From: an uncultured Gammaproteobacteria bacterium
Lineage (GTDB): Bacteria; Patescibacteriota; Patescibacteriia; UBA2196; GWA2-42-15
Assembly: GCA_964573135.1 (NCBI GenBank)
Contig: CAZNIO010000003.1
Span: forward strand, 10,881-74,880
DNA: 64,000 nt
Reading direction: 5' to 3'
Part shown: in pieces, positions 3,306 to 53,180 of the stretch
Position numbering within the stretch: the first letter of the stretch is position 1
Layout: every line of letters begins with the position of its first letter
The notes under the pieces: generated by a model
Database searches by the model: none
What the model was told of the DNA's origin: nothing
The model's input: the letters and a program-made list of their open reading frames with translations, nothing else
Program-made: the position numbers and the translations under genes

Positions 3306-4244
3306 TTAAAGAGTGGTTATGGGTCGACTTTGGGTAATGTACAGTTTGCCTCCAACCTCAGCCCATTCAATATCACAGGGGAATTTATAGTGCTTCTCGA
3401 TGTGGCCACATAGCTGAGCGAGCTCAATAATTTTTTTACCCATCAATTTTTGCTGCTCTTGTTTACTTTTTGGGACATTTATAGTTTTGGTAGCTTTACC
3501 CACTTTGGTAATCATTTTTTCTTGCTTGGCAATATTAATATCCATGATAGACCAATCACGCTTGTCAATAACATAAGAGTCGGGGGTAACCTGGCCCGAA
3601 ACGATGGCCTCACCCAGCCCCCAGCCGGCCTCAATAATCATTTGATTTTTGTCTTGAGTGACCGGATGAACGGTAAAGGTAATACCGGAAACTTCAGACT
3701 GAATCATGGCCTGGATAACAACGGCTACTGATACATGTGACTTGAGCATTTTTTTTTCATGGCGATAGAAAATAGCGCGTGGAGTAAAAAGAGATGACCA
3801 GCATTTTTTGACATTGTTAATGAGTTCTTTTTCTGAAGTGTTTAAATATGTTTCCAGCTCCCCTGCCCAAGAGGCTGTGCTTGAATCTTCGGCAGTAGCT
3901 GAACTTCTAACAGCGACTAACGGTGTTTTTAATTTTTTAAACTCGCTGGTAATTTCTTGAGCTAAGTCCTCCGGGAATGCAGTTTTGTCAATCATGTCGC
4001 GAATAACATTCGAATACCTATCAACTGAATTGATATCTTGGTAATTGACATTAGCGAGTTGGGCGCTGATGTCTTGTTTTAAATCAGTTTCTTCTAAAAA
4101 TCTATCAAAGGCATGCGAGGTGAATACAAAGCCAGGCGGGACTGGGATTTTGGCGTTTGTCATTTCACCGAGTGACGCCCCTTTACCCCCAGCTAAGAGT
4201 ACATCTTTTTTGGTAATTTGCTTAAAAGTTCTAGTATATGACAT
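3306..4244 (-). CDS. PEP synthase/PPDK N-terminal ATP-binding (ATP-grasp) domain protein
   Basis: N-terminal ...KKDVLLAGGKGASLGEMTNAKIPVPPGFVFTSHAFDRF... is the classic PPDK_N nucleotide-binding signature. 312 aa equals the N-terminal module of RPH/PpsA. Confidence 0.75.
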   Translation of the reverse strand: MSYTRTFKQITKKDVLLAGGKGASLGEMTNAKIPVPPGFVFTSHAFDRFLEETDLKQDISAQLANVNYQDINSVDRYSNVIRDMIDKTAFPEDLAQEITSEFKKLKTPLVAVRSSATAEDSSTASWAGELETYLNTSEKELINNVKKCWSSLFTPRAIFYRHEKKMLKSHVSVAVVIQAMIQSEVSGITFTVHPVTQDKNQMIIEAGWGLGEAIVSGQVTPDSYVIDKRDWSIMDINIAKQEKMITKVGKATKTINVPKSKQEQQKLMGKKIIELAQLCGHIEKHYKFPCDIEWAEVGGKLYITQSRPITTL

Positions 4245-43636: not shown

Positions 43637-43911
43637 CTGGAAAATATTTCACCCATATTACCCTCCAATAGCGCAAGGATAATTAGGAAAACCTGACTAT
43701 CCTTAACTTGAGGCTACTCGATCCGGTTAGGAGGGGTTCCTTCACTTTCGCCACTATTAGAGGAAAATATAAGCAATATATATATTGATCAATTGTCAAA
43801 TTATATTAACATGAATTACAAAACTTGTCAAGTAGCGATAAACATGTTATATTAATTTATATTAAAAATGCTGTAAAAAGCGTTGTTTTTTAATAACTTT
43901 GACCCCGAAAA

Positions 43912-43986
43912 GGTCCCTTCGTCTAGTGGTTAGGACACTAGGTTTTCATCCTAGAAACAGGGGTTCGATTCCCCTAGGGACTACCA
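43912..43986 (+). tRNA. tRNA-Glu (anticodon TTC), CCA encoded
   Basis: Anticodon arm CTAGG-TTTTCAT-CCTAG, T-arm AGGGG-TTCGATT-CCCCT, acceptor GGTCCCT/AGGGACT (G1-U72). Confidence 0.85.
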
Positions 43987-43987
43987 A

Positions 43988-44020
43988 AGAGGACTCACTC
44001 GCAAGATTGGGTCTTTTTTG
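43988..44020 (+). terminator. Putative terminator after tRNA-Glu (imperfect hairpin + T6)
   Basis: aagaggactcactcgcaagattgggtctttttt is about 80% identical to the module after Repeat B2 (47088..47121). Confidence 0.4.
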
Positions 44021-44172
44021 ATTGGAATGTTAACGCAGGAAGTGATTTTCTAGCTTCAATTGAAATATAGATAAGTTGGTTGCAGAAAATATCTATGAAA
44101 TGTACACATTTGACAGATAAAAAAGTTTTATGTATACTTAAAATATATTGAATAATTAAAAAAGTTTTAAAT

Positions 44173-45378
44173 ATGATTAAAAAATACATCAAACGCCCTA
44201 TATACTTAGATCAAATTAAGCCCTTTATTGACAAGGATATTATTAAAGTTATCATCGGACAACGACGAGTTGGTAAAAGTTATTTGTTGTTCCAAATAAT
44301 GGATGAGATAAAAAAGAAAAATAAAACAGCTAATATTATTTATATCAACAAAGAATTAAATGAATTTGAAACAATAAAAAATGACAAAGACTTATTGGAT
44401 TATATTAAAAAAAATAATAAGAATAAGAAGAGTTATGTTTTTATTGATGAAATACAGGATATTCAAAATTTTGAAAAGGCCTTAAGAAGCTTGAAAGCTG
44501 AGGGGAAATATGATATCTACTGCACTGGCAGTAATGCTAATTTGCTATCAAGCGAAATAGCCACTTATCTTAGCGGTCGATATATTGAGATAAACGTTTT
44601 TGGATTAAGTTATGTTGAATTTTTACAATTTCATAATTTGAAGGAAGATACAGATTCATTTTTAAAATATATCAAATATGGTGGTTTGCCTTATTTAATA
44701 AATTTAGATTTAACTGACGAAATTGTTTATCATTATTTAAAAAGTATTTATAACACAATTCTATTGAAGGATGTTGTCAGCAGATTTAATATTCGTAATG
44801 TTTCATTTTTAGAAAGTTTAATTGACTACCTGGCTGATAATACTGGTAGCTTAGTTTCTTCTAAGAAAATTAGTGATTTTTTAAAATCACAAAAAATTAA
44901 TATTTCAACAAACATTGTCTTGGATTATTTATCTTTTTTAGCAAATGCATTCTTTATTTTCAAAGTCCAAAGATCTGAGGTACAGGGTAAAAAAATATTT
45001 GAAATTAATGATAAATATTACTTTGAAGATCTTGGGCTCAGACATTCCTTAATTGGTTATAAGCAGGTCGATATAAATAAGATTTTAGAAAATTTAGTTT
45101 TTTTACATTTACAAATTTTAGGCTACAAAGTAACAGTTGGGCAACTGAAAGAAAAAGAAATTGATTTTGTGTGTGAAAAAGAAAATAAAAAAATATATAT
45201 TCAAGTGGCTTACTTAATTAATGATAAAAATAAAGATAGGGAGTTTGGAAATTTATTACAAATCAAGGATAATTATCCTAAAATAGTTGTTTCAACTGAT
45301 GAATTAATAGACAACAGTGAATATAAAGGAGTAAAACATTTTAATATTAGAAATTTTTTAACCATAACATCTTTTTAA
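44173..45378 (+). CDS. AAA-family ATPase with DUF4143-like C-terminal domain
   Basis: Walker A GQRRVGKSY, Walker B …VFIDEIQ…. 401 aa, architecture typical of AAA_14+DUF4143 ATP-binding proteins. Confidence 0.7.
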   Translation: MIKKYIKRPIYLDQIKPFIDKDIIKVIIGQRRVGKSYLLFQIMDEIKKKNKTANIIYINKELNEFETIKNDKDLLDYIKKNNKNKKSYVFIDEIQDIQNFEKALRSLKAEGKYDIYCTGSNANLLSSEIATYLSGRYIEINVFGLSYVEFLQFHNLKEDTDSFLKYIKYGGLPYLINLDLTDEIVYHYLKSIYNTILLKDVVSRFNIRNVSFLESLIDYLADNTGSLVSSKKISDFLKSQKINISTNIVLDYLSFLANAFFIFKVQRSEVQGKKIFEINDKYYFEDLGLRHSLIGYKQVDINKILENLVFLHLQILGYKVTVGQLKEKEIDFVCEKENKKIYIQVAYLINDKNKDREFGNLLQIKDNYPKIVVSTDELIDNSEYKGVKHFNIRNFLTITSF

Positions 45379-45407
45379 GTTTGCTAAATTTTATACACTT
45401 TACAACC

Positions 45408-45479
45408 CTGGAATCACAAGATGCCACCTCCTAATATCCCCCACTATTTGTTTTAAATTCTTTAAACAATGGTCTACCA
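45408..45479 (+). repeat. Repeat B copy 1 (~72-nt conserved non-coding element)
   Basis: ctggaatcacaagatgccacctcctaatatcccccactatttgttttaaattctttaaacaatggtctacca. About 90% identity with copies at 47018 and 47989. Confidence 0.75.
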
Positions 45480-45500
45480 TTCCAGATTTCCCCTTAGATC

Positions 45501-45548
45501 GCCCGCCCCTTGGGCGGATGAATTCTCGGCGCTTCGCGCCGTTTTTTT
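45501..45548 (+). terminator. Tandem GC hairpins + T8 after Repeat B1
   Basis: CCGCC-ccttg-GGCGG followed by GGCGC-ttc-GCGCC, then gttttttt. Confidence 0.6.
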
Positions 45549-45807
45549 GTTTTATCTAATTTTTGAGAGTTGTTTGGTTTGAAAAGTTTTGTAAGTATGA
45601 AAATATAAGGTCGTCACTTGCTATTTACTTGGGACGACTTTTTTATTGTAAATTGGTTTAATCTTACGAAATTGCCCCTTATTTTAGAGGGTTTTGGGGT
45701 TGGGCAATGTGGACTTTTTCTATTGCATAATATATAATCAAGTCAGATAAAAATACATACAGACTCTAAGAAACAAGTAAGTAAATATCAATACAAATAA
45801 TACCCCT

Positions 45808-46803
45808 ATGATGATCAATAAAAGTACATATATTTTTGGTGGCGGAGATTCTGATGGATTGCTTGGCATTGCCACAATATTAAAAAAAGTAAATGATGCT
45901 TTTTTCTCTTTTACTTCCCCTAGAACCTTACATAGTCTAATCCATGATCTTGTAAAAGGAACTAACGGTAGTGTCTATATTGTAGATTTAGCAATAGATG
46001 CTTCAACATATAAAGATTTATTTAAAGAAATAGAAGGACGGCCTGGATTTGATAGTTATTTTTTTGACCAACATAATTTACCCGCTGGCGTATCCAAAGA
46101 GGACTTGCCGTTCACTGATTTATCAATTGATAGTGCGGTATCTAGCTGTGAAAATACATACGTTACAATTGGAAGCGATCTGGATCCTATAATTCCAGCC
46201 ATGGCTTCCTTAAATGACGGCATTTCTGATACTGAAAAAATAAGGGAAGCACAAAAAATTCATGGGGAGAAACTATATTCAAATGCTAAAATATTAAAAT
46301 TTGGTTTGGCATACAATATTAAAGATAATAAATTTAAACGTCAATTAGTGTATGATTTTAAAGAGGGCAAATATCCAGAATCTATTCCTGAATTAGTAGA
46401 TAGATACAAAAAAGGCCTTATACGGTGGGAAGAAATTAAAAAGATGGCTAATGAAAGGAAAAAAAGCCTTACACATCTAGCGTATGGTTTGTTCCCAAAT
46501 TTGAAAGGGGGGTTTACTAACTTACTAGCAGCATACCTAGCAGAAAGCACTGAAAAATTAGTTGGGGTTAGTATCCTTGAAACTGACCGCACCCTGCAAA
46601 AAATGAATATTATTTCAAATGATCCATCACTGAATATTGGTTTGTTTGTACATAAAGTAGCAAACAAATTTAATGGTTTTGGCGGGGGTAGTATTTCTAG
46701 CGCTGGGGCTACTTTACAGAAAAAGGAGACTACAAACTTTCTGCAAAACCTTAATAAAGAGATTGGAGATTATAAAAAATTATTAAAAAGCAATCAAGAC
46801 TAA
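45808..46803 (+). CDS. Hypothetical protein, possible DHH/DHHA1-like phosphoesterase
   Basis: N-terminal IFGGGDSDGLLG (DxD-like motif I), …VDLAID…, …FFDQHN… (degenerate DHH), C-terminal …FNGFGGGSIS… (DHHA1 GGGH-like). Weak assignment. Confidence 0.45.
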   Translation: MMINKSTYIFGGGDSDGLLGIATILKKVNDAFFSFTSPRTLHSLIHDLVKGTNGSVYIVDLAIDASTYKDLFKEIEGRPGFDSYFFDQHNLPAGVSKEDLPFTDLSIDSAVSSCENTYVTIGSDLDPIIPAMASLNDGISDTEKIREAQKIHGEKLYSNAKILKFGLAYNIKDNKFKRQLVYDFKEGKYPESIPELVDRYKKGLIRWEEIKKMANERKKSLTHLAYGLFPNLKGGFTNLLAAYLAESTEKLVGVSILETDRTLQKMNIISNDPSLNIGLFVHKVANKFNGFGGGSISSAGATLQKKETTNFLQNLNKEIGDYKKLLKSNQD

Positions 46804-46807
46804 AAAG

Positions 46808-46930
46808 ATGACCAGAAAAAACATTGAAATAATTTTACCAGAAGTATCGCAAGACACTATTAAGTACGACTTGCGCAAAATGAAAGAAAAAGGCTTAATT
46901 GTCCAAAGTGGTGAGTCTGTAAATACATAG
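46808..46930 (+). CDS. Small ORF (40 aa), possible winged-helix fragment or gene remnant
   Basis: MTRKNIEIILPEVSQDTIKYDLRKMKEKGLIVQSGESVNT starts 5 nt after the stop of the preceding gene and resembles the C-terminus of a wHTH regulator. Below the track cutoff. Confidence 0.25.
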   Translation: MTRKNIEIILPEVSQDTIKYDLRKMKEKGLIVQSGESVNT

Positions 46931-47017
46931 TATGAAGCTAATTTTTAGTTAAAAAAACTACCTAAAATTTAACCGCAATTAGAAGCGATCCCGAATAATT
47001 AATTAAGTATTTAATTC

Positions 47018-47087
47018 AGGAATCACAAAATACCATCTCCTAATATCCCCTACTATTTGTTTTAAATTCTTTAAACAGTGGTCTACC
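47018..47087 (+). repeat. Repeat B copy 2
   Basis: caggaatcacaaaataccatctcctaatatcccctactatttgttttaaattctttaaacagtggtctacca. Ends in CTACCA like a tRNA 3' end. Confidence 0.75.
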
Positions 47088-47093
47088 AAAGAA

Positions 47094-47121
47094 TACTCAC
47101 TCGTAAGAGTGGGTGTTTTTT
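47094..47121 (+). terminator. Intrinsic terminator after Repeat B2 (CACTC-gtaa-GAGTG + T6)
   Basis: Hairpin + T-run. The sequence resembles the tRNA-Glu flank. Confidence 0.5.
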
Positions 47122-47151
47122 GTTTAGGCTAATATTTATGCTATAATACAA

Positions 47152-47769
47152 ATGTTAACTAAATTAAACAGTATGAAAAAGTATTTTAAAAAATCTAATC
47201 CAAAAATAAAAATTAATACAATTTATGTTTTTATTGATGCTTCAAATGTCTGGAATGCGGTCAAGGCTGAAAAGAAATTTATTGAATACAAGAAGATTAA
47301 AAATTGGTTGAAAAAGAATTTTAATGCTACTAATGTTGAAATTTTTTATTATGATGCCTACCCCAAAGATGGGACAAGGGAATATAGCCTAGATGGTAAA
47401 CATAGATTTTTTACCTATCTAAAAAAAGGTCTCGGCTTCACGGTGCGTAAAAAAGAATTAAAAAGAATTACCATTACTAGTAAAGATGGGGAATCTATCA
47501 TGGAGAAAGGTAATATGGATATAGAGATGGTTATTGATGCGATCCATAATATGAATAAATATGATACTGCTGTTTTGTTTAGTGGAGATGCTGATTTTTT
47601 GGCACTAGTTAATTATTTAAAAAATGGTGGTAAAAAAGTCTATATTTTCTCCTCAAAAGATAATATATCTCGCGAACTTAAAACTGGCGGGAATGGATAT
47701 TTTGATGTAAGGGATATAAAAGAATTCTGGGGTAAGGATTTGAAATATCGTATAAATAAGCAAAAATAA
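47152..47769 (+). CDS. NYN-domain (LabA-like) putative ribonuclease
   Basis: …IYVFIDASNVWNA… and …VLFSGDADF… acidic residues, typical of the NYN/LabA-like PIN-related fold. 205 aa. Confidence 0.65.
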   Translation: MLTKLNSMKKYFKKSNPKIKINTIYVFIDASNVWNAVKAEKKFIEYKKIKNWLKKNFNATNVEIFYYDAYPKDGTREYSLDGKHRFFTYLKKGLGFTVRKKELKRITITSKDGESIMEKGNMDIEMVIDAIHNMNKYDTAVLFSGDADFLALVNYLKNGGKKVYIFSSKDNISRELKTGGNGYFDVRDIKEFWGKDLKYRINKQK

Positions 47770-47988
47770 AACCACCCTCAACTAAGAGGATGGCTCTAGG
47801 ATGTATAACCCTAACAGTTCTATGGAAGAACCGAAAGACATTATTAATATACACTTTTTTAATAAAAATGTCAAATTTCATCCACAGGGTGTCAAAATAG
47901 CATTATTATCAAATATTTATCTGATATATTAACTATATCAGATTATATCAATTTAAGGGATGTTAATGGTGAGCAATAGTCCGTAACT

Positions 47989-48059
47989 CAGGAATCACAA
48001 AATACCATCTCCTAACATCAGCCACTATTTGTTTTAAATTCTTTAAACAATAGTCTACC
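47989..48059 (+). repeat. Repeat B copy 3
   Basis: caggaatcacaaaataccatctcctaacatcagccactatttgttttaaattctttaaacaatagtctacc. Confidence 0.75.
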
Positions 48060-48249
48060 GAAGAAGACTTCTCCTCGCGAGTGGTCTTTTTTGATTTGTA
48101 GATTAGAAAAAAATAGAGTTTCTCAGTTTTTACGTGATTTATAGATTGAAATAAGGATTTGGTTTATTTCAATAAATGGCATATTATTACAACATAAATA
48201 ACGACATTGTAAAGATATAAATTATCAAGAAAAAACTATAAAATCTTTA

Positions 48250-48633
48250 GTGACAGCGATAAGTTATGTTGTTTCACTTATGGCTTTAGGTTTTATTTCA
48301 TTTCTTGTTTCCATCGGCTTATCTTGGAGTCGTTGTGATTTGAAATGCGAGGTATCTCACTTTTTATCTAGTGAGCTACTGGCTATATTTTTTTGGCCGG
48401 TGATGCTCATAGGCGACATTGATAACCTTGTTTTCGTATTGATTTTTTGTGCTCTTTTTAATATTCTTTTTGTTTATTTTATTTTGCGTTTAATTATAGC
48501 GAAGACGCGGTTGTCAAATAAACAAATTATTTTAATAATTATTATCGGTTCTTTGGTAATTGCTCCTATTTTACCGATTATTGGATTTAACAGTGAATTC
48601 TATCGCCAGTTTGTAATGGACTTCTGGTCTTAA
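48250..48633 (+). CDS. Small integral membrane protein (127 aa, GTG start)
   Basis: Four hydrophobic segments. No family assignable. Confidence 0.45.
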   Translation: MTAISYVVSLMALGFISFLVSIGLSWSRCDLKCEVSHFLSSELLAIFFWPVMLIGDIDNLVFVLIFCALFNILFVYFILRLIIAKTRLSNKQIILIIIIGSLVIAPILPIIGFNSEFYRQFVMDFWS

Positions 48634-48940
48634 AAGTCTTTTTTGATTTCGATTCAGTTGTGATTATTTTTTTACACACTATATCTAATTTTTAAATTGA
48701 CCTTATTTTTTATAATTGTCTGAAAAACTTCAATACCTCCTCCACCAAAGTTTTTCAAAGGAATAAGGCATATAAGCATCAGAGATTTTTTAAAAAGTAC
48801 TTCTTTTTAATATTGAGCAACCAAAACCCAATATCTGAAGCCATTTATGCAAGCCTATTGGCCTAACCCTATACACAACCTGCTTAGTCCTGCCAAGACC
48901 CTTGCAAAATACTATATTTATGCTAATGTTTAATCAATAG

Positions 48941-49008
48941 AAACAGTTTGTGATTCTGGTATTATAAAATACCGTTTTTTAATATCAGCGATTATTTGTT
49001 GCAAATTC
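48941..49008 (+). repeat. Partial/rearranged Repeat B-like segment immediately upstream of tRNA-Val
   Basis: …gattatttgttgcaaattctttaaataatgg matches the 3' half of Repeat B. Upstream tttgtgattctggtatt is the inverted form of the Repeat B 5' segment gaatcacaaa…atacc. Confidence 0.5.
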
Positions 49009-49009
49009 T

Positions 49010-49086
49010 TTAAATAATGGGGCACTTAGCTCAGTTGGCTAGAGCATCTCGTTTACACCGAGAGGGTCGGGGGTTCGAGTCCCTCA
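49010..49086 (+). tRNA. tRNA-Val (anticodon TAC), CCA encoded
   Basis: Acceptor GGGCACT/AGTGCCC, anticodon arm TCTCG-TTTACAC-CGAGA, T-arm GGGGG-TTCGAGT-CCCTC. Confidence 0.9.
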
Positions 49087-49117
49087 GTGCCCACCAGAAA
49101 AACTAACCCATGCTTAT

Positions 49118-49369
49118 ATGAAATATTTTTTTAGTTTTTTAGCTATTGTAGCTGGATTCTTTTTAGTTAAATATTCCAATAACATTGTGAATAGCTTTGG
49201 GCGTAGTGCCTGGGCTGAACATTATCTTGGATCCTACGGAGGTACCAGAGCATTAATTAAAATGATCGGCATTCTTTTTATAATAGGTGCATTGTTGGTT
49301 GTTAGTGGATTAATGAATACAATTCTTTACTCAATCTTTTCACCGACCATAAGTAGTATGTCATATTAG
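49118..49369 (+). CDS. Small membrane protein (83 aa) between tRNA-Val and tRNA-Ala
   Basis: Two hydrophobic helices. Position only. Confidence 0.4.
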   Translation: MKYFFSFLAIVAGFFLVKYSNNIVNSFGRSAWAEHYLGSYGGTRALIKMIGILFIIGALLVVSGLMNTILYSIFSPTISSMSY

Positions 49370-49378
49370 TATAAATAA

Positions 49379-49451
49379 GGGCCGCTAGCTCAGTTGGTAG
49401 AGCACCTGCTTTGCAAGCAGGGGGTCAGGAGTTCGAGTCTCCTGCGGTCCA
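49379..49451 (+). tRNA. tRNA-Ala (anticodon TGC), CCA not encoded
   Basis: Acceptor GGGCCGC/GCGGTCC with the G3:U70 Ala identity pair. Anticodon arm CCTGC-TTTGCAA-GCAGG. Confidence 0.9.
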
Positions 49452-49461
49452 AAAAAGACAT

Positions 49462-49881
49462 ATGATAAATAAGTATCAAAAATTCCACGTAGGCATAAAT
49501 GTAATTGTAGTCAAAAATAATCAATTGCTTTTGGGCAAAAGGAAAAATGTTTATGGAGCTGGAACTTGGGGTATGTCAGGTGGCCACTTAGAAGACATGG
49601 AAGGAATGAAAGATGCGGCAGCTCGTGAACTATTTGAAGAAACCGGTATAAAGGCCGAGGAATATATTTTTTCTGATATAGTCAATGATCGACGCGATAA
49701 TCATTATTTACAAATAGGTTTTGTGGCAAAAAATCATAAGGGTGAACCTCAGGTGAGAGAGCCTGATAGATGCGAGGAGCGGAAATGGTTTGATTTAGAT
49801 GATTTGCCAGAGAACATATTTCCGGGACACGTTGAGAATATAAGATTATATTTGGAGAATTCAAATTTTGGTGATAATTAG
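49462..49881 (+). CDS. NUDIX hydrolase
   Basis: Nudix box GGHLEDMEGMKDAAARELFEETG. Start moved to MINKYQ… because the track ORF start (49411) lies inside tRNA-Ala. Confidence 0.8.
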   Translation: MINKYQKFHVGINVIVVKNNQLLLGKRKNVYGAGTWGMSGGHLEDMEGMKDAAARELFEETGIKAEEYIFSDIVNDRRDNHYLQIGFVAKNHKGEPQVREPDRCEERKWFDLDDLPENIFPGHVENIRLYLENSNFGDN

Positions 49882-50674
49882 TTATATGAAACAAGATCCT
49901 CAATTTAAAAAGGTAGCAGTTGAATCAGCCAAACAAGCTGGTAAGGTTATATTAAAACATTTTGACAAGATAGCCAGGAAAAATTTAATGGTAAAGAATA
50001 AGTATGAGATTGTAACCCCGGCTGATTTAGCAGCAGAGAAGATAATTCTTAAGAATATTAAAAAGAATTTTCCAAGTCATAGAATTTTATCCGAAGAGGA
50101 AGGTAAAACTGGGGCTGAAAAATCAGAATACTTATGGGTGATAGACCCCTTAGATGGGACAACTAATTTTTCGATGGGTAATCCCCTATTCAATGTATCA
50201 ATTGCATTATTTAAAAATGATAAACCAATACTCGGGATAATTTACGTACCATTTTTAAATAACTTATATCTAGCGCAAAAAGGCAAAGGAGCTACTTTAA
50301 ATGGAAAGAAAATAAGAGTATCAACGGTAGGTAAAATAAAAGATGCATTTTTGACTTTTTGCCATGGGTATAATGAGAAGAGTGTTAAGAAAGCGATTAA
50401 GATATATAGTAAGTTAAAGTTTGAGGCAAGGGATCTAAGACAAATCGGAGCAGCGGCCATTGAATGTGCCTGGGTGGCACAAGGTAAAACTGAAGCAATT
50501 ATGATACCCGGAGTAAATGTGTGGGATGTGGCAGCCGGAGCTCTACTCATACGGGAAGCGGGTGGCATAGTAAGTGATATGATGGGACATGAATGGGATA
50601 TACATTCAGAAGGTATTATTGCAAGTAATAAGGTGATAAATGATCAGCTTATACGAAGAGTGAAGAATATATGA
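49868..50674 (+). CDS. suhB: Inositol monophosphatase family protein
   Basis: …WVIDPLDGTTNF… and …WDVAAGALLIREAGG… motifs. Confidence 0.8.
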   Translation: MVIISYMKQDPQFKKVAVESAKQAGKVILKHFDKIARKNLMVKNKYEIVTPADLAAEKIILKNIKKNFPSHRILSEEEGKTGAEKSEYLWVIDPLDGTTNFSMGNPLFNVSIALFKNDKPILGIIYVPFLNNLYLAQKGKGATLNGKKIRVSTVGKIKDAFLTFCHGYNEKSVKKAIKIYSKLKFEARDLRQIGAAAIECAWVAQGKTEAIMIPGVNVWDVAAGALLIREAGGIVSDMMGHEWDIHSEGIIASNKVINDQLIRRVKNI

Positions 50675-50892
50675 AGATTAAAGTGAAAGTAAATACTAAG
50701 GCCAAAGAGAACAAGGTAGAAAGAATAAGCAATGATGAATATGAGATAAATACCACTCAAATTCCAGAGAAAGGCAAGGCAAATGAAAAAATTCTAAAGA
50801 TGATGGCCAAAGAATTAAAAAAAGCGAAGAGTAACTTAAGAATTATTCAGGGAGGAAAAAGTAGATACAAAGTAATAGAGATTGACAATTAG
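50671..50892 (+). CDS. DUF167 (YggU/UPF0235) family protein
   Basis: 73 aa with …KGKANEKILKMMAKELK…IIQGGKSRYKVIEI… pattern. 4-nt overlap with the upstream gene. Confidence 0.6.
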   Translation: MKIKVKVNTKAKENKVERISNDEYEINTTQIPEKGKANEKILKMMAKELKKAKSNLRIIQGGKSRYKVIEIDN

Positions 50893-50922
50893 CTTTTTAA
50901 GATTTACTATATTAAATATCAT

Positions 50923-50997
50923 GCGGGTGTCGTATAATGGTTATTATATTGGGTTGCCAATCCAAAGATGGCGGTTCGATTCCGCTCACCCGCTCCA
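50923..50997 (+). tRNA. tRNA-Gly (anticodon GCC), CCA encoded
   Basis: Acceptor GCGGGTG/CACCCGC, anticodon arm TTGGG-TTGCCAA-TCCAA, T-arm GGCGG-TTCGATT-CCGCT. Track ORF 50919..51113(-) is spurious. Confidence 0.85.
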
Positions 50998-51395
50998 ACT
51001 AAAAGCTTCTTTAATAGCTCTAATATTAGGGGAGTTTTTAGTTGGAATTTAAGTGGCTGGTAATGGGAATCAAACTTTTGCCTTATTTTATAAACCGCGC
51101 AATTTGACATCAAAATAAAGTCTTCTGGTTATATTTATTAAAATTAAGCTAATATTAGCTAAATTATTACTTTATGCTAACCGCGCAATTTGACATATAA
51201 CTTTTGATCTAAAAAAAGCATACCCTAATTACTTTTTAGATACAAAGGAATTCATTGCTTATCTTAACAAAATTGTAGACAAAAAATAATAAATTTTACA
51301 AAATAAGCTAAGCTTCTCCCTGCATAACAAACTCTGGAGAACAAATCCCCCCATCGAATTGTACTGTCACAGTTCTAACATCATTGACTAAAGAG

Positions 51396-51440
51396 CTCCA
51401 TCCAAAAAACTCTAGAAATTCTAGAGTTTTTTGGATGAAT
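51396..51440. repeat. Palindromic element copy 1 (AAAAAACTCTAGAA-A-TTCTAGAGTTTTTT with CCATCC/GGATG extension); doubles as a bidirectional terminator
   Basis: Near-perfect palindrome of about 40 bp. A second copy at 53141 has the centre base flipped (A vs T). Confidence 0.75.
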
Positions 51441-51480
51441 TGACATTGCCATACCCAATAAAAAATGGTATAATTACAAT

Positions 51481-51705
51481 ATGAAACAAGCTAAAAAATA
51501 TATAAAGTCATCATCTTTCTGGGATTATAAGATTGAGAAAAGGGCACTTAAAAATGAAAAAGTGAAAAAGTTTTGGTTGGCTAGAAAAATCAATATGGCG
51601 GACTGGCAAGGGATCAAGAAAAAAGACCTAGAAAAATATTTACCCGAACTTGATATCAGGCCGGAAATGAAAAATTTGTTAACTTTATTTTTGGAACATG
51701 CTTAA
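51481..51705 (+). CDS. Small hypothetical protein (74 aa), candidate AbiEi-like/antitoxin partner
   Basis: 8-nt overlap with the downstream AbiEii-like gene. Basic/charged. No clear motif. Confidence 0.4.
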   Translation: MKQAKKYIKSSSFWDYKIEKRALKNEKVKKFWLARKINMADWQGIKKKDLEKYLPELDIRPEMKNLLTLFLEHA

Positions 51706-52375
51706 GAATATTTTAAATCCAACACAGATAAAAGCATTAACTGCTATTGGCCAAAGCGAACTGGCTAAAATTTATTATTGGACTGGTGGTACTGCTTTGG
51801 CGTATAAATACTTAAACAATAGATTATCAGTTGACCTGGATTTTTTTAGTTATGATTTAATAGCAGATGAAGAGCTGTTGGCTTTGGTAAATAATATCAA
51901 AAAGCAATTAGGGGTTAAAAGAATTAAATTTTATAAGAATTTAAATCGTCAACAATTTATCCTTGATTTTGGCAATAAAATCAGCTTGCAACTTGAGTTT
52001 GTATATTTCCCCTTTGATAATATATCAAAACCAAAATCAGACCAGGATTTTAAGATTAAAGTTGATTCATTAGTTGATATGGCGACTAATAAAACGCTAG
52101 CTACTTATCAGAGAAATGAACCTAAAGATATTTTTGATTTATATTCCCTTTTAGAAACTAAAAAATTTAAATTGCCTGGGTTAATAAAAAATGTTAATAA
52201 AAAATTTGAAATAGAAATTGATGAAGCAGATTTGGAAGCAAAAATTTTAAGTAATATTGATTTATTGGAGAATATAAGGCCATTGATATTGAATAAGAGG
52301 AATTTCAAAATTGGCAAGATAGAAGCTTTTTTTACCAAGAAATCTGTTAACTATTTAAAGACGGTTATTTTTTGA
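51698..52375 (+). CDS. Nucleotidyltransferase of the AbiEii/AbiGii (DUF1814) toxin family
   Basis: …YYWTGGTALAYKYLNNRLSVDLDFFS… matches the hGGTAL…R.S.DLDF signature of type IV TA / abortive-infection NTases. Confidence 0.6.
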   Translation: MLKNILNPTQIKALTAIGQSELAKIYYWTGGTALAYKYLNNRLSVDLDFFSYDLIADEELLALVNNIKKQLGVKRIKFYKNLNRQQFILDFGNKISLQLEFVYFPFDNISKPKSDQDFKIKVDSLVDMATNKTLATYQRNEPKDIFDLYSLLETKKFKLPGLIKNVNKKFEIEIDEADLEAKILSNIDLLENIRPLILNKRNFKIGKIEAFFTKKSVNYLKTVIF

Positions 52376-52439
52376 TACCAAACCCTGTGTTGAGAACTAA
52401 AAATTGAGATGGTAATATTAAAAGCAAAAGTGATATACA

Positions 52440-53069
52440 ATGAATAAAATTCAACAAGCCAATCAAGAGTCTAGACATGGTAATAATTTGAATGATAAGA
52501 ATTTTAAGAGTGTGGCAGGACTCTATGAGAAGAGTTTAAAGTTTCCAGCCCAAAAATACCAAAAGCAGCTAATTATTTGCCCGATCGGACTTGTTAGTTC
52601 AGGAAAAACCACAGTCGTCAAGATTTTGTGTAAAAAGTTACCACTTTTGCGCGTTTCAACTGATGAGATTAGATTACTATTAAAAGAAAAAGAGTACAAT
52701 TTTACTAGGACACGTGAATTGGCTTGGCATATAATTAATAAATATTTAAAGCAGGGGTTCAGTATTGCCATTGATGCAGATTGTATTTCCGAAGAGGCAC
52801 GCAAATATATAAAAGATTTGGAAAAACAAACTAAAACCAAAGTTTTTTGGATTCATATTAACCCACCCCGGAGTTTTATTTTAAATAATTTAAGTAAACC
52901 TAAAAAAATATTCAAAAATACTGAACATGCATTGCGGGTTTATAAAATGCACAAAGTATTACATAATAAGATAAATTTTCCTTTTATATATATTTTTGAT
53001 ACGGCCAAAAATAATGTGATAGAACAAACCAAGGAGTGCGTGTTACTAATTAAGAAGGAATTAAGTTAA
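52440..53069 (+). CDS. P-loop NTPase/kinase (AAA_33/zeta-toxin-like fold)
   Basis: Walker A CPIGLVSSGKTTVVKIL. 209 aa. No further family resolution. Confidence 0.55.
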   Translation: MNKIQQANQESRHGNNLNDKNFKSVAGLYEKSLKFPAQKYQKQLIICPIGLVSSGKTTVVKILCKKLPLLRVSTDEIRLLLKEKEYNFTRTRELAWHIINKYLKQGFSIAIDADCISEEARKYIKDLEKQTKTKVFWIHINPPRSFILNNLSKPKKIFKNTEHALRVYKMHKVLHNKINFPFIYIFDTAKNNVIEQTKECVLLIKKELS

Positions 53070-53140: not shown

Positions 53141-53180
53141 TCCGCCAAAAAACTCTAGAATTTCTAGAGTTTTTTGAATA
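53141..53180. repeat. Palindromic element copy 2 (AAAAAACTCTAGAA-T-TTCTAGAGTTTTTT)
   Basis: Same 30-bp core as 51396..51440 with the complementary centre base, consistent with inverted orientation. Between convergent genes. Confidence 0.75.

Follow-up and report, generated by a model that had tools for sequence, protein, structure and literature searches.

A short conserved protein family encoded directly upstream of AbiEii-like nucleotidyltransferases in Patescibacteria: a probable two-gene module of the MenAT/AbiE type

Nucleotidyltransferases of the DUF1814 family (PF08843) are components of the AbiE and MenAT systems, and all members of PF08843 that have been characterised are toxins (PMC3985639, PMC7450476). 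MenT1, MenT3 and AbiEii add nucleotides to the acceptor ends of tRNA and block translation, while the antitoxins that control such DUF1814 toxins are diverse and belong to three families (PMC10435456, PMC11375011, bioRxiv 10.64898/2026.01.19.700257). In all three systems the antitoxin induces an auto-phosphorylation of the toxin at an equivalent serine or threonine (PMC11375011; 10.64898/2026.01.19.700257), the phospho-acceptor being T39 in MenT1, S78 in MenT3 and T65 in AbiEii. This auto-phosphorylation is induced by MenA1 and by the unrelated antitoxins of COG5340 alike (PMC10435456, PMC11375011, bioRxiv 10.64898/2026.01.19.700257). MenA1 is a helical antitoxin of only 68 aa without a DNA-binding domain, and the catalytic residues tested in its toxin MenT1 are T39, D41, K137 and D152 (PMC10435456). 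AbiEi has recently been reported to bind AbiEii (10.64898/2026.01.19.700257). Here we describe a pair of overlapping genes, encoding an AbiEii-like nucleotidyltransferase of 225 aa and a partner of 74 aa, on a 64,000-nt stretch of contig CAZNIO010000003.1 (hereafter the window), which originates from an uncultured, ultra-small bacterium assigned to the Patescibacteriota by GTDB and thus to the candidate phyla radiation (CPR). A first-pass annotation had proposed a type IV toxin–antitoxin or abortive-infection system at this locus, with a kinase as a possible third component. The type IV label goes back to the first description of AbiE (PMC3985639) and is outdated, as AbiE and MenAT have been reclassified as type VII (PMC11375011; bioRxiv 10.64898/2026.01.19.700257).

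Of the interpretations considered below, we favour one in which positions 51481-52375 probably constitute a two-gene, translationally coupled module of the MenAT/AbiE type, where the place of the antitoxin is taken by a short protein family. The three open reading frames (ORFs) of the locus, all on the plus strand, are at 51481-51705 (74 aa), 51698-52375 (225 aa) and 52440-53069 (209 aa). An overlap of 8 nt at 51698-51705 (ATGCTTAA) joins the first of these to the second, as the first-pass annotation had pointed out, and the third, which encodes the kinase, starts 64 nt past the stop codon of the AbiEii-like gene. The features of the locus are as follows.

51400-51437, no strand: palindrome copy 1, perfect over 19+19 nt, forming a hairpin directly 5' of the promoter
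51446-51474, plus strand: sigma-70-type promoter, TTGCCA-17 nt-TATAAT, with TG extension
51481-51705, plus strand: short partner, putative antitoxin, 74 aa, basic (isoelectric point 9.9) and helical
51698-52375, plus strand: DUF1814/AbiEii nucleotidyltransferase, putative toxin, 225 aa, PF08843
52390-52418: candidate promoter of the kinase gene, TTGAGA-17-TAATAT with TG
52440-53069, plus strand: P-loop kinase resembling AAA_33 and polynucleotide kinases, 209 aa, PF13671, judged to lie outside the module
53145-53179, no strand: palindrome copy 2, 76 nt past the kinase stop codon, probable bidirectional terminator

The 225-aa protein is a genuine member of the DUF1814/AbiEii nucleotidyltransferases and has an intact catalytic set. 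It matches PF08843 with 59.5 bits (gathering cut-off 22.5, E 6e-16), and of the 19 rows obtained with PADLOC 18 were AbiEii, with 17 AbiEii models matching at E < 0.01. On account of the PF08843 match the toxin assignment stands, and the motifs are present as the first-pass annotation had described them, namely GGTAL (residues 30-34, with G30-G31-T32) and RLSVDLDFF (residues 42-50, with R42, S44, D46 and D48). The nucleotidyltransferase motifs are thus complete, comprising the G-[GS] turn, the metal-binding D-x-D motif, and the catalytic lysine and aspartate further downstream. There are 357 homologues, nearly all of those listed having a length of 210–230 aa, and in 112 aligned sequences the residues G30, G31, R42, S44, D46, D48, F49, F50, N131, K132, D147 and K169 are invariant. 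The serine located two residues ahead of the first catalytic aspartate (S44) is among these; it is equated with the known phospho-acceptors by its position in the motif and not by a superposition of solved structures. The AlphaFold2 model of the protein is of high quality (predicted local distance difference test, pLDDT, 95.2; predicted template modelling score, pTM, 0.90), and a Foldseek comparison of this model with PDB returned JHP933 as the best match (E 1e-8, template modelling score 0.54–0.58), then MenT1 (8an4, E 3e-5), with RNA terminal transferases ranking after these. When PDB was searched with a sequence profile of the toxin, JHP933 was the sole match (E 1e-8).

The 74-aa ORF is a real, conserved gene under purifying selection and not a chance ORF. 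This follows from the analysis of 80 loci with genes for relatives of the toxin, taken from GTDB genomes, which together hold 88 AbiEii-like genes. In at least 54 of the 80 loci a tblastn search with the 74-aa protein detected a homologue directly upstream of the toxin gene and in the same orientation, and a profile hidden Markov model of the partner found a counterpart in 77 of them, with E-values down to ~1e-28. Counted by gene, the partner adjoins 79 of the 88 AbiEii-like genes, always upstream and on the same strand. Among the three loci negative with the profile, one ends at a contig edge, while the other two have a divergent ORF of the same size in the same place. A divergent variant of the partner (MYNWS…INFGL…) lies upstream of, and overlaps with, AbiEii-like genes at L053 1268-1468 and at L078 about 3816-4019; its similarity to the main family is weak (hhalign probability 31%), so that the partner superfamily extends beyond what the profile covers.

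The length of the partner is restricted to 65–83 aa in the related loci, and in 68 of 70 pairs its stop codon overlaps or abuts the start of the toxin gene (gaps from -59 to +2 nt, the commonest being -8, -14, -16 and -4 nt), while fusions of partner and toxin are absent from the 80 loci. The toxin–antitoxin architecture that had been recognised at the window locus is thus an overlapping bicistronic layout that is kept in its relatives. When the window was compared to its four closest relatives, the ratio of non-synonymous to synonymous substitution rates (dN/dS) of the partner was 0.04–0.20 where it could be computed. Synonymous sites are largely saturated, the proportion of differences at these (pS) being 0.45–0.84 versus 0.08–0.25 at non-synonymous sites (pN); those pairs for which dN/dS could not be computed have a pS of 0.75–0.84 and a pN of 0.08–0.21. 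A database search with the partner alignment retrieved 410 proteins, and the 120 matches listed are 65–115 aa long, carry no Pfam domain and are nearly all unnamed or annotated as “hypothetical protein”. The toxin type is well known; the partner family is previously unannotated.

The partner represents a separate short family, which is neither a truncated AbiEi nor a homologue of MenA1, because it lacks similarity to either of them in sequence and in structure. Its signature is W14-D15-Y16 … W32-L33-x-R35-K36-I37-N38-x-x-D41-x-x-G44. At E up to 1 the 74-aa protein is without a match in Pfam and PADLOC, and its sole match in NCBIfam is at the level of chance (E 0.016). None of 43 members of the partner family matched an AbiEi model from Pfam or PADLOC, no helix-turn-helix (HTH) or winged HTH family matched the partner in searches of family libraries, and an hhalign comparison with the annotated AbiEi of Halobacterium plasmid PHS1 gave a probability of 0.1%. 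The AlphaFold2 model (pLDDT 86, pTM 0.72) consists of four helices that are preceded by an extended N-terminus. A winged HTH, which the first-pass annotation had suggested looking for in the predicted structure, is absent from this all-helical model, as is any beta hairpin or beta wing, and the model does not display features of a nuclease or a membrane toxin. A Foldseek search with the model gave no match in PDB (best E 5) or BFVD (best E 0.8), while a search of all PDB chains with the partner profile, at E-values up to 10, produced 7 weak chance matches, none of them MenA1.

The first-pass annotation had left open whether the 74-aa ORF is a minimal antitoxin or a truncated gene. A truncated AbiEi is ruled out by the length (65–83 aa) that is kept throughout about 80 loci and by the missing similarity to AbiEi, so that a conserved short partner is what is left of this pair of options. 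Likewise, the designation “AbiEi-like” is adequate with respect to the presumed role of the protein but not with respect to homology. A relationship to DUF6922 (PF21956) was also considered, as 12 of 43 partner homologues showed weak matches over the WDY…RK region (best E 9e-4). One member with a listed score reached 12.7 bits versus a cut-off of 27, all matches are below the threshold, consensus sequences of the family fail to match and the literature is silent, so that the assignment was not adopted; any relationship is remote at most.

The promoter upstream of the pair (TTGCCA-17-TATAAT) has 11 of 12 matches to the consensus and is the best of the region. Its -10 box ends 6 nt ahead of the ATG of the partner gene, which is not preceded by a Shine-Dalgarno sequence, and from this position the mRNA of the partner appears to be leaderless or nearly so. 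A similar arrangement is found in relatives, where a -10 box is located 4–8 nt ahead of the partner ATG in 35 of 58 related loci (10.5% for control ATGs) and a TG-extended -10 box is found at the same spot in 21 of the 58 (1.4% for control ATGs).

The mechanism that we propose is modelled on the described systems. By homology to MenT1, MenT3 and AbiEii, the 225-aa toxin would add nucleotides to tRNA 3' ends and would thereby block translation. The 74-aa protein, in which no DNA-binding domain is recognisable, would replace AbiEi and would most likely neutralise the toxin by direct binding, in the course of which, by analogy with MenA1, it might push Ser44 towards the bound nucleoside triphosphate, so that the toxin auto-phosphorylates and is switched off. 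Both genes would be transcribed from the strong extended -10 promoter as a leaderless mRNA. We further consider it possible, if somewhat doubtful, that the WDY…W-L-x-R-K-I-N proteins form a fourth class of DUF1814 antitoxins, structurally distinct and CPR-wide, the docking of which would trigger auto-phosphorylation of the serine.

Several points weigh against the interpretation as a toxin–antitoxin module. Toxicity, antitoxicity, the tRNA target, the physical contact and the phosphorylation are inferred for this clade, and the proposed mechanism is built on analogy and gene order alone, because the partner does not resemble any characterised antitoxin. Also, binding to nucleic acids would be compatible with the strong basicity of the partner and with the helical conformation of its best-conserved stretch (W-L-x-R-K-I-N). 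Finally, the genomes of these bacteria are tiny, and the enzyme may have a housekeeping use without toxicity.

The best homologues are found in Kuenenbacteria and in other Patescibacteria/CPR lineages, and the pair is present across many lineages of the CPR. Its spread is patchy, with 253 stretches confirmed in ~185,000 species genomes, and its genomic site varies. It is found in the gap between pheS and pheT in one case (L001 1134-5707) and behind pheS and followed by a gene for a family-4 glycosyltransferase in two others (L002, L004), one of which (L004) has a Fic/DOC gene adjoining the pair, while in the window it is located ~480 nt past a tRNA-Gly gene. The closest relatives of the pair (60–64% identity) have pheT or the gene for a family-4 glycosyltransferase downstream. 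The pheS/pheT sites suggest a recurrent insertion hotspot for small toxin modules, and the patchy and variable distribution suggests that the pair belongs to the mobile, accessory part of the genome and not to the housekeeping genes. The viral contigs of IMG/VR yielded no relatives of the toxin clade, the plasmids of PLSDB carry only distant AbiEii genes (26–33% identity) which have other partners, and a comparison of the partner consensus with plasmids gave nothing. In a few of the loci two or three AbiEii-like genes occur within 8 kb (three in L066; also L035, L039, L057 and L075). Some of these genes are without the short partner and presumably have partners of other types.

The genome represented by the window is AT-rich and matches the JGI metagenome contig Ga0075122_10000042 (94.9 kb); the same three genes also occur on short ENA contigs from the same strain. 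The GC content of the cassette (0.28–0.31) is lower than that of its flanks (0.35–0.38), but other stretches nearby are equally low, and GC content was thus not taken as decisive evidence for an island. In the region, tRNA-Gly is the sole match to an Rfam family. At about 43900-51000 of the window, genes for tRNAs (Glu, Val, Ala, Gly) form a cluster that is mixed with accessory-looking genes (for an AAA_14/DUF4143 ATPase, a NUDIX protein and, at 47152-47769, a protein with an NYN domain) and with several ORFs that have no family assignment; the genome may be variable along this stretch.

The genes for the partner, the toxin and the kinase are flanked by two perfect palindromes of 35 nt that are nearly identical to each other (CCAAAAAACTCTAGAA[A/T]TTCTAGAGTTTTTTG). 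These are the only two copies in the 64-kb window, where none would be expected by chance, and the same palindrome is absent from >160 other loci. Copy 1 forms a hairpin (-25.7 kcal/mol, z = -9.3) that is terminator-like on the minus strand and is probably a bidirectional terminator or an insulator, while the hairpins of copy 2 have -19.3 and -20.9 kcal/mol on the two strands. As a pair, the palindromes may be twin bidirectional terminators or, alternatively, may mark the boundary of an insertion or its scar. Breaks at or near copy 1 are seen in several short contigs of the same strain. With regard to a variant with an empty site, exact-protein look-ups of two flanking small genes returned the same strain alone. 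The promoters of the 58 related loci are not clearly richer in inverted repeats than the controls (13.8% vs 7.5%), and there is therefore no sign of a conserved operator; those palindromes that were found are located 42–61 nt upstream, like terminators of the preceding gene.

Upstream of the cassette, an exact 18-nt direct repeat (AACCGCGCAATTTGACAT) occurs at 51093-51110 and 51179-51196, the copies being 86 nt apart, with ~0.04 copies expected. Each copy contains a TTGACA hexamer, and there is no match to Rfam. The repeat is located within the gene-free stretch of ~480 nt that extends from tRNA-Gly (50923-50997) to the cassette.

The third gene, as had been stated in the first-pass annotation, encodes a Walker-A kinase that directly follows the pair. 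The 209-aa protein matches PF13671 (AAA_33) with 36.7 bits (cut-off 27), has the Walker A motif GLVSSGKTT at residues 50-58, and shows weak similarity in NCBIfam, far below the cut-offs, to Pnkp, APS kinase and other kinases. An exhaustive HMMER search identified 319 cluster representatives of homologues at E up to 0.001. Members of this small family are mostly stand-alone proteins of about 200–220 aa, with rare fusions (P0243, P0255, P0263) to a LigT/2H phosphoesterase (in the best homologue), to shikimate kinase or to NUDIX. A LigT/2H domain and a kinase are also the two domains that RNA end-healing enzymes combine. G55 and K56 of Walker A do not vary among the aligned sequences, nor do D75 and D112; in the 12 closest sequences R78 and D114 are invariant as well, and R78 is conserved to at least 90% in 44. 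D75 and R78 form a D-x-x-R motif ~19 residues past the P-loop lysine, which we take to resemble D35/R38 of T4 Pnk. Profile matches in PDB are weak and comprise PSTK, the kinase domain of CthPnkp, Trl1, Pnkp1, and adenylate and shikimate kinases. From these motifs, a nucleotide or polynucleotide is a plausible substrate, and the family may represent an uncharacterised RNA or nucleotide kinase.

A three-component system, in which the kinase works with the pair, for example by silencing the toxin through phosphorylation or by repairing damaged RNA, might be suspected from the arrangement in the window, where the kinase gene is on the same strand only 64 nt past the toxin stop, with no terminator-like site in between, and where the same 35-nt palindrome flanks all three genes. 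It would also be in line with the control of DUF1814 toxins by phosphorylation (PMC11375011), with the PNK-like combination of Walker A and DxxR, and with the fusion of the best kinase homologue to a phosphoesterase of the RNA-repair type. However, the linkage is missing in both directions. A kinase homologue adjoins the pair in 0 of the 80 AbiEii loci, a single weak match (L031, E 8e-4) being 2.5 kb upstream, and neither an AbiEii-like gene nor the partner occurs in any of 80 kinase loci from metagenomes (382 kb, from a scan built on the 12 closest kinase sequences), where the neighbours are, as judged by eye, variable housekeeping genes such as those for DnaA-, DnaN- and RnpA-like proteins. 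The closest relatives of the pair have other genes downstream, the kinase has a promoter-like site of its own, and the phosphorylation described for DUF1814 toxins is an auto-phosphorylation, for which a separate kinase is not needed. The kinase was thus rejected as a system component, contrary to what the first-pass annotation had considered; it is an independent gene, the adjacency of which is specific to the window genome, and we think that a contribution to the pair is very unlikely. An exchange of roles between the two proteins of the pair, with the small basic protein as the toxin and the nucleotidyltransferase as a modifying antitoxin, is extremely unlikely. Nucleotidyltransferases do act as antitoxins in HEPN-MNT systems, and the small protein is from a family not annotated before, but every DUF1814 enzyme that was tested has proved to be a toxin, genes for antitoxins typically take the upstream position, and the model of the small protein is devoid of nuclease and membrane-toxin features.

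Two other possibilities accept the pair as a unit. The enzyme could be a housekeeping nucleotidyltransferase of CPR bacteria that modifies RNA or tRNA, with the 74-aa protein as its specificity or regulatory subunit, so that there would be no toxin–antitoxin module at all. The fold is common to RNA terminal transferases (TENT5, terminal uridylyltransferases, poly(A) polymerases), many CPR lineages have the pair, it is located beside pheS/pheT in the closest relatives, and the search of viral contigs yielded no relatives. We nevertheless consider this unlikely in view of the patchy occurrence (253 stretches), the shifting genomic sites, the multi-copy loci and the one Fic neighbour, the overlapping bicistronic layout with a small upstream gene that is typical of toxin–antitoxin modules, and the fact that all characterised members of PF08843 are toxins (PMC3985639, PMC7450476). 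It is still less probable that the partner is solely a DNA-binding autorepressor, or a protector of the target as in type IV systems, and does not contact the toxin. The basic character of the partner (isoelectric point 9.9), its conserved R-K-I-N helix, the large palindrome that abuts the promoter in the window and the original description of AbiE as type IV (PMC3985639) would be compatible with this. On the other hand, the partner lacks a match to any HTH or winged HTH family and to any structure in PDB, palindromes are not clearly enriched in the 58 related promoters and are terminator-like where they occur, the twin of the window palindrome behind the kinase gene fits a terminator, and binding to AbiEii has now been reported even for AbiEi (10.64898/2026.01.19.700257). 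We therefore favour the two-gene module with a toxin-binding short partner as the probable one.

AbiEii genes from the CPR are probably read as orphans by pipelines that require AbiEi together with AbiEii, because the partner is not modelled in any of the searched libraries (Pfam, NCBIfam, PADLOC). These genes are in fact nearly always accompanied by a conserved small partner, and a profile of this family would allow its annotation. With its ~70 aa and its hundreds of natural variants, a partner unrelated to the described antitoxins also offers a compact test of how general the auto-phosphorylation is; if docking of these proteins does trigger it, the recently proposed “type VII” mechanism would hold for one more antitoxin fold, the third and unrelated to the others, and for a quite distant bacterial branch. 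The gain is moderate, as the diversity of antitoxins for DUF1814 toxins has already been documented. The kinase illustrates that adjacency on the same strand is no evidence for membership in a system.

Compared to described systems, the kinase resembles other AAA_33 kinases (T4 Pnk, bacterial Pnkp, the kinase domains of Trl1, PSTK) in having Walker A and DxxR. AbiE (Streptococcus agalactiae, Lactococcus), MenAT3 and MenAT4 share with the window pair a PF08843 toxin with the conserved serine or threonine, and a bicistronic, overlapping operon with the antitoxin gene first. Their antitoxins AbiEi, MenA3 and MenA4 belong to COG5340, have ~200–300 aa, and carry a winged HTH at the N-terminus and an antitoxicity domain at the C-terminus, in contrast to the 74-aa partner, which does not match any AbiEi model. 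JHP933 from Helicobacter pylori (PDB 4o8s, 4ok0) has a size similar to that of the toxin and is the closest solved structure by sequence and fold, yet the identity to it is just 17–19% in the Foldseek alignments. Of the characterised toxins with a solved structure MenT1 comes closest; it is distant (12% identity in the Foldseek alignment) but has equal spacings of the catalytic residues, 2 from Ser/Thr to Asp and 15 from Lys to Asp (S44, D46, K132 and D147 in the 225-aa toxin). MenA1 (PDB 8AN5) does not match the window partner in sequence or structure; it consists of one long helix and a short one, whereas the partner model is a compact four-helix arrangement with an extended WDY N-terminus; also, MenAT1 (MenT1 Rv0078A, MenA1 Rv0078B) is from the actinobacterium M. 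tuberculosis, and the window pair from the CPR. Even so, MenAT1 is like the window pair in combining a minimal DUF1814 nucleotidyltransferase (~200 aa) and a helical partner of very small size, which is encoded just upstream and lacks a DNA-binding domain, a resemblance that we regard as analogy and not as homology.

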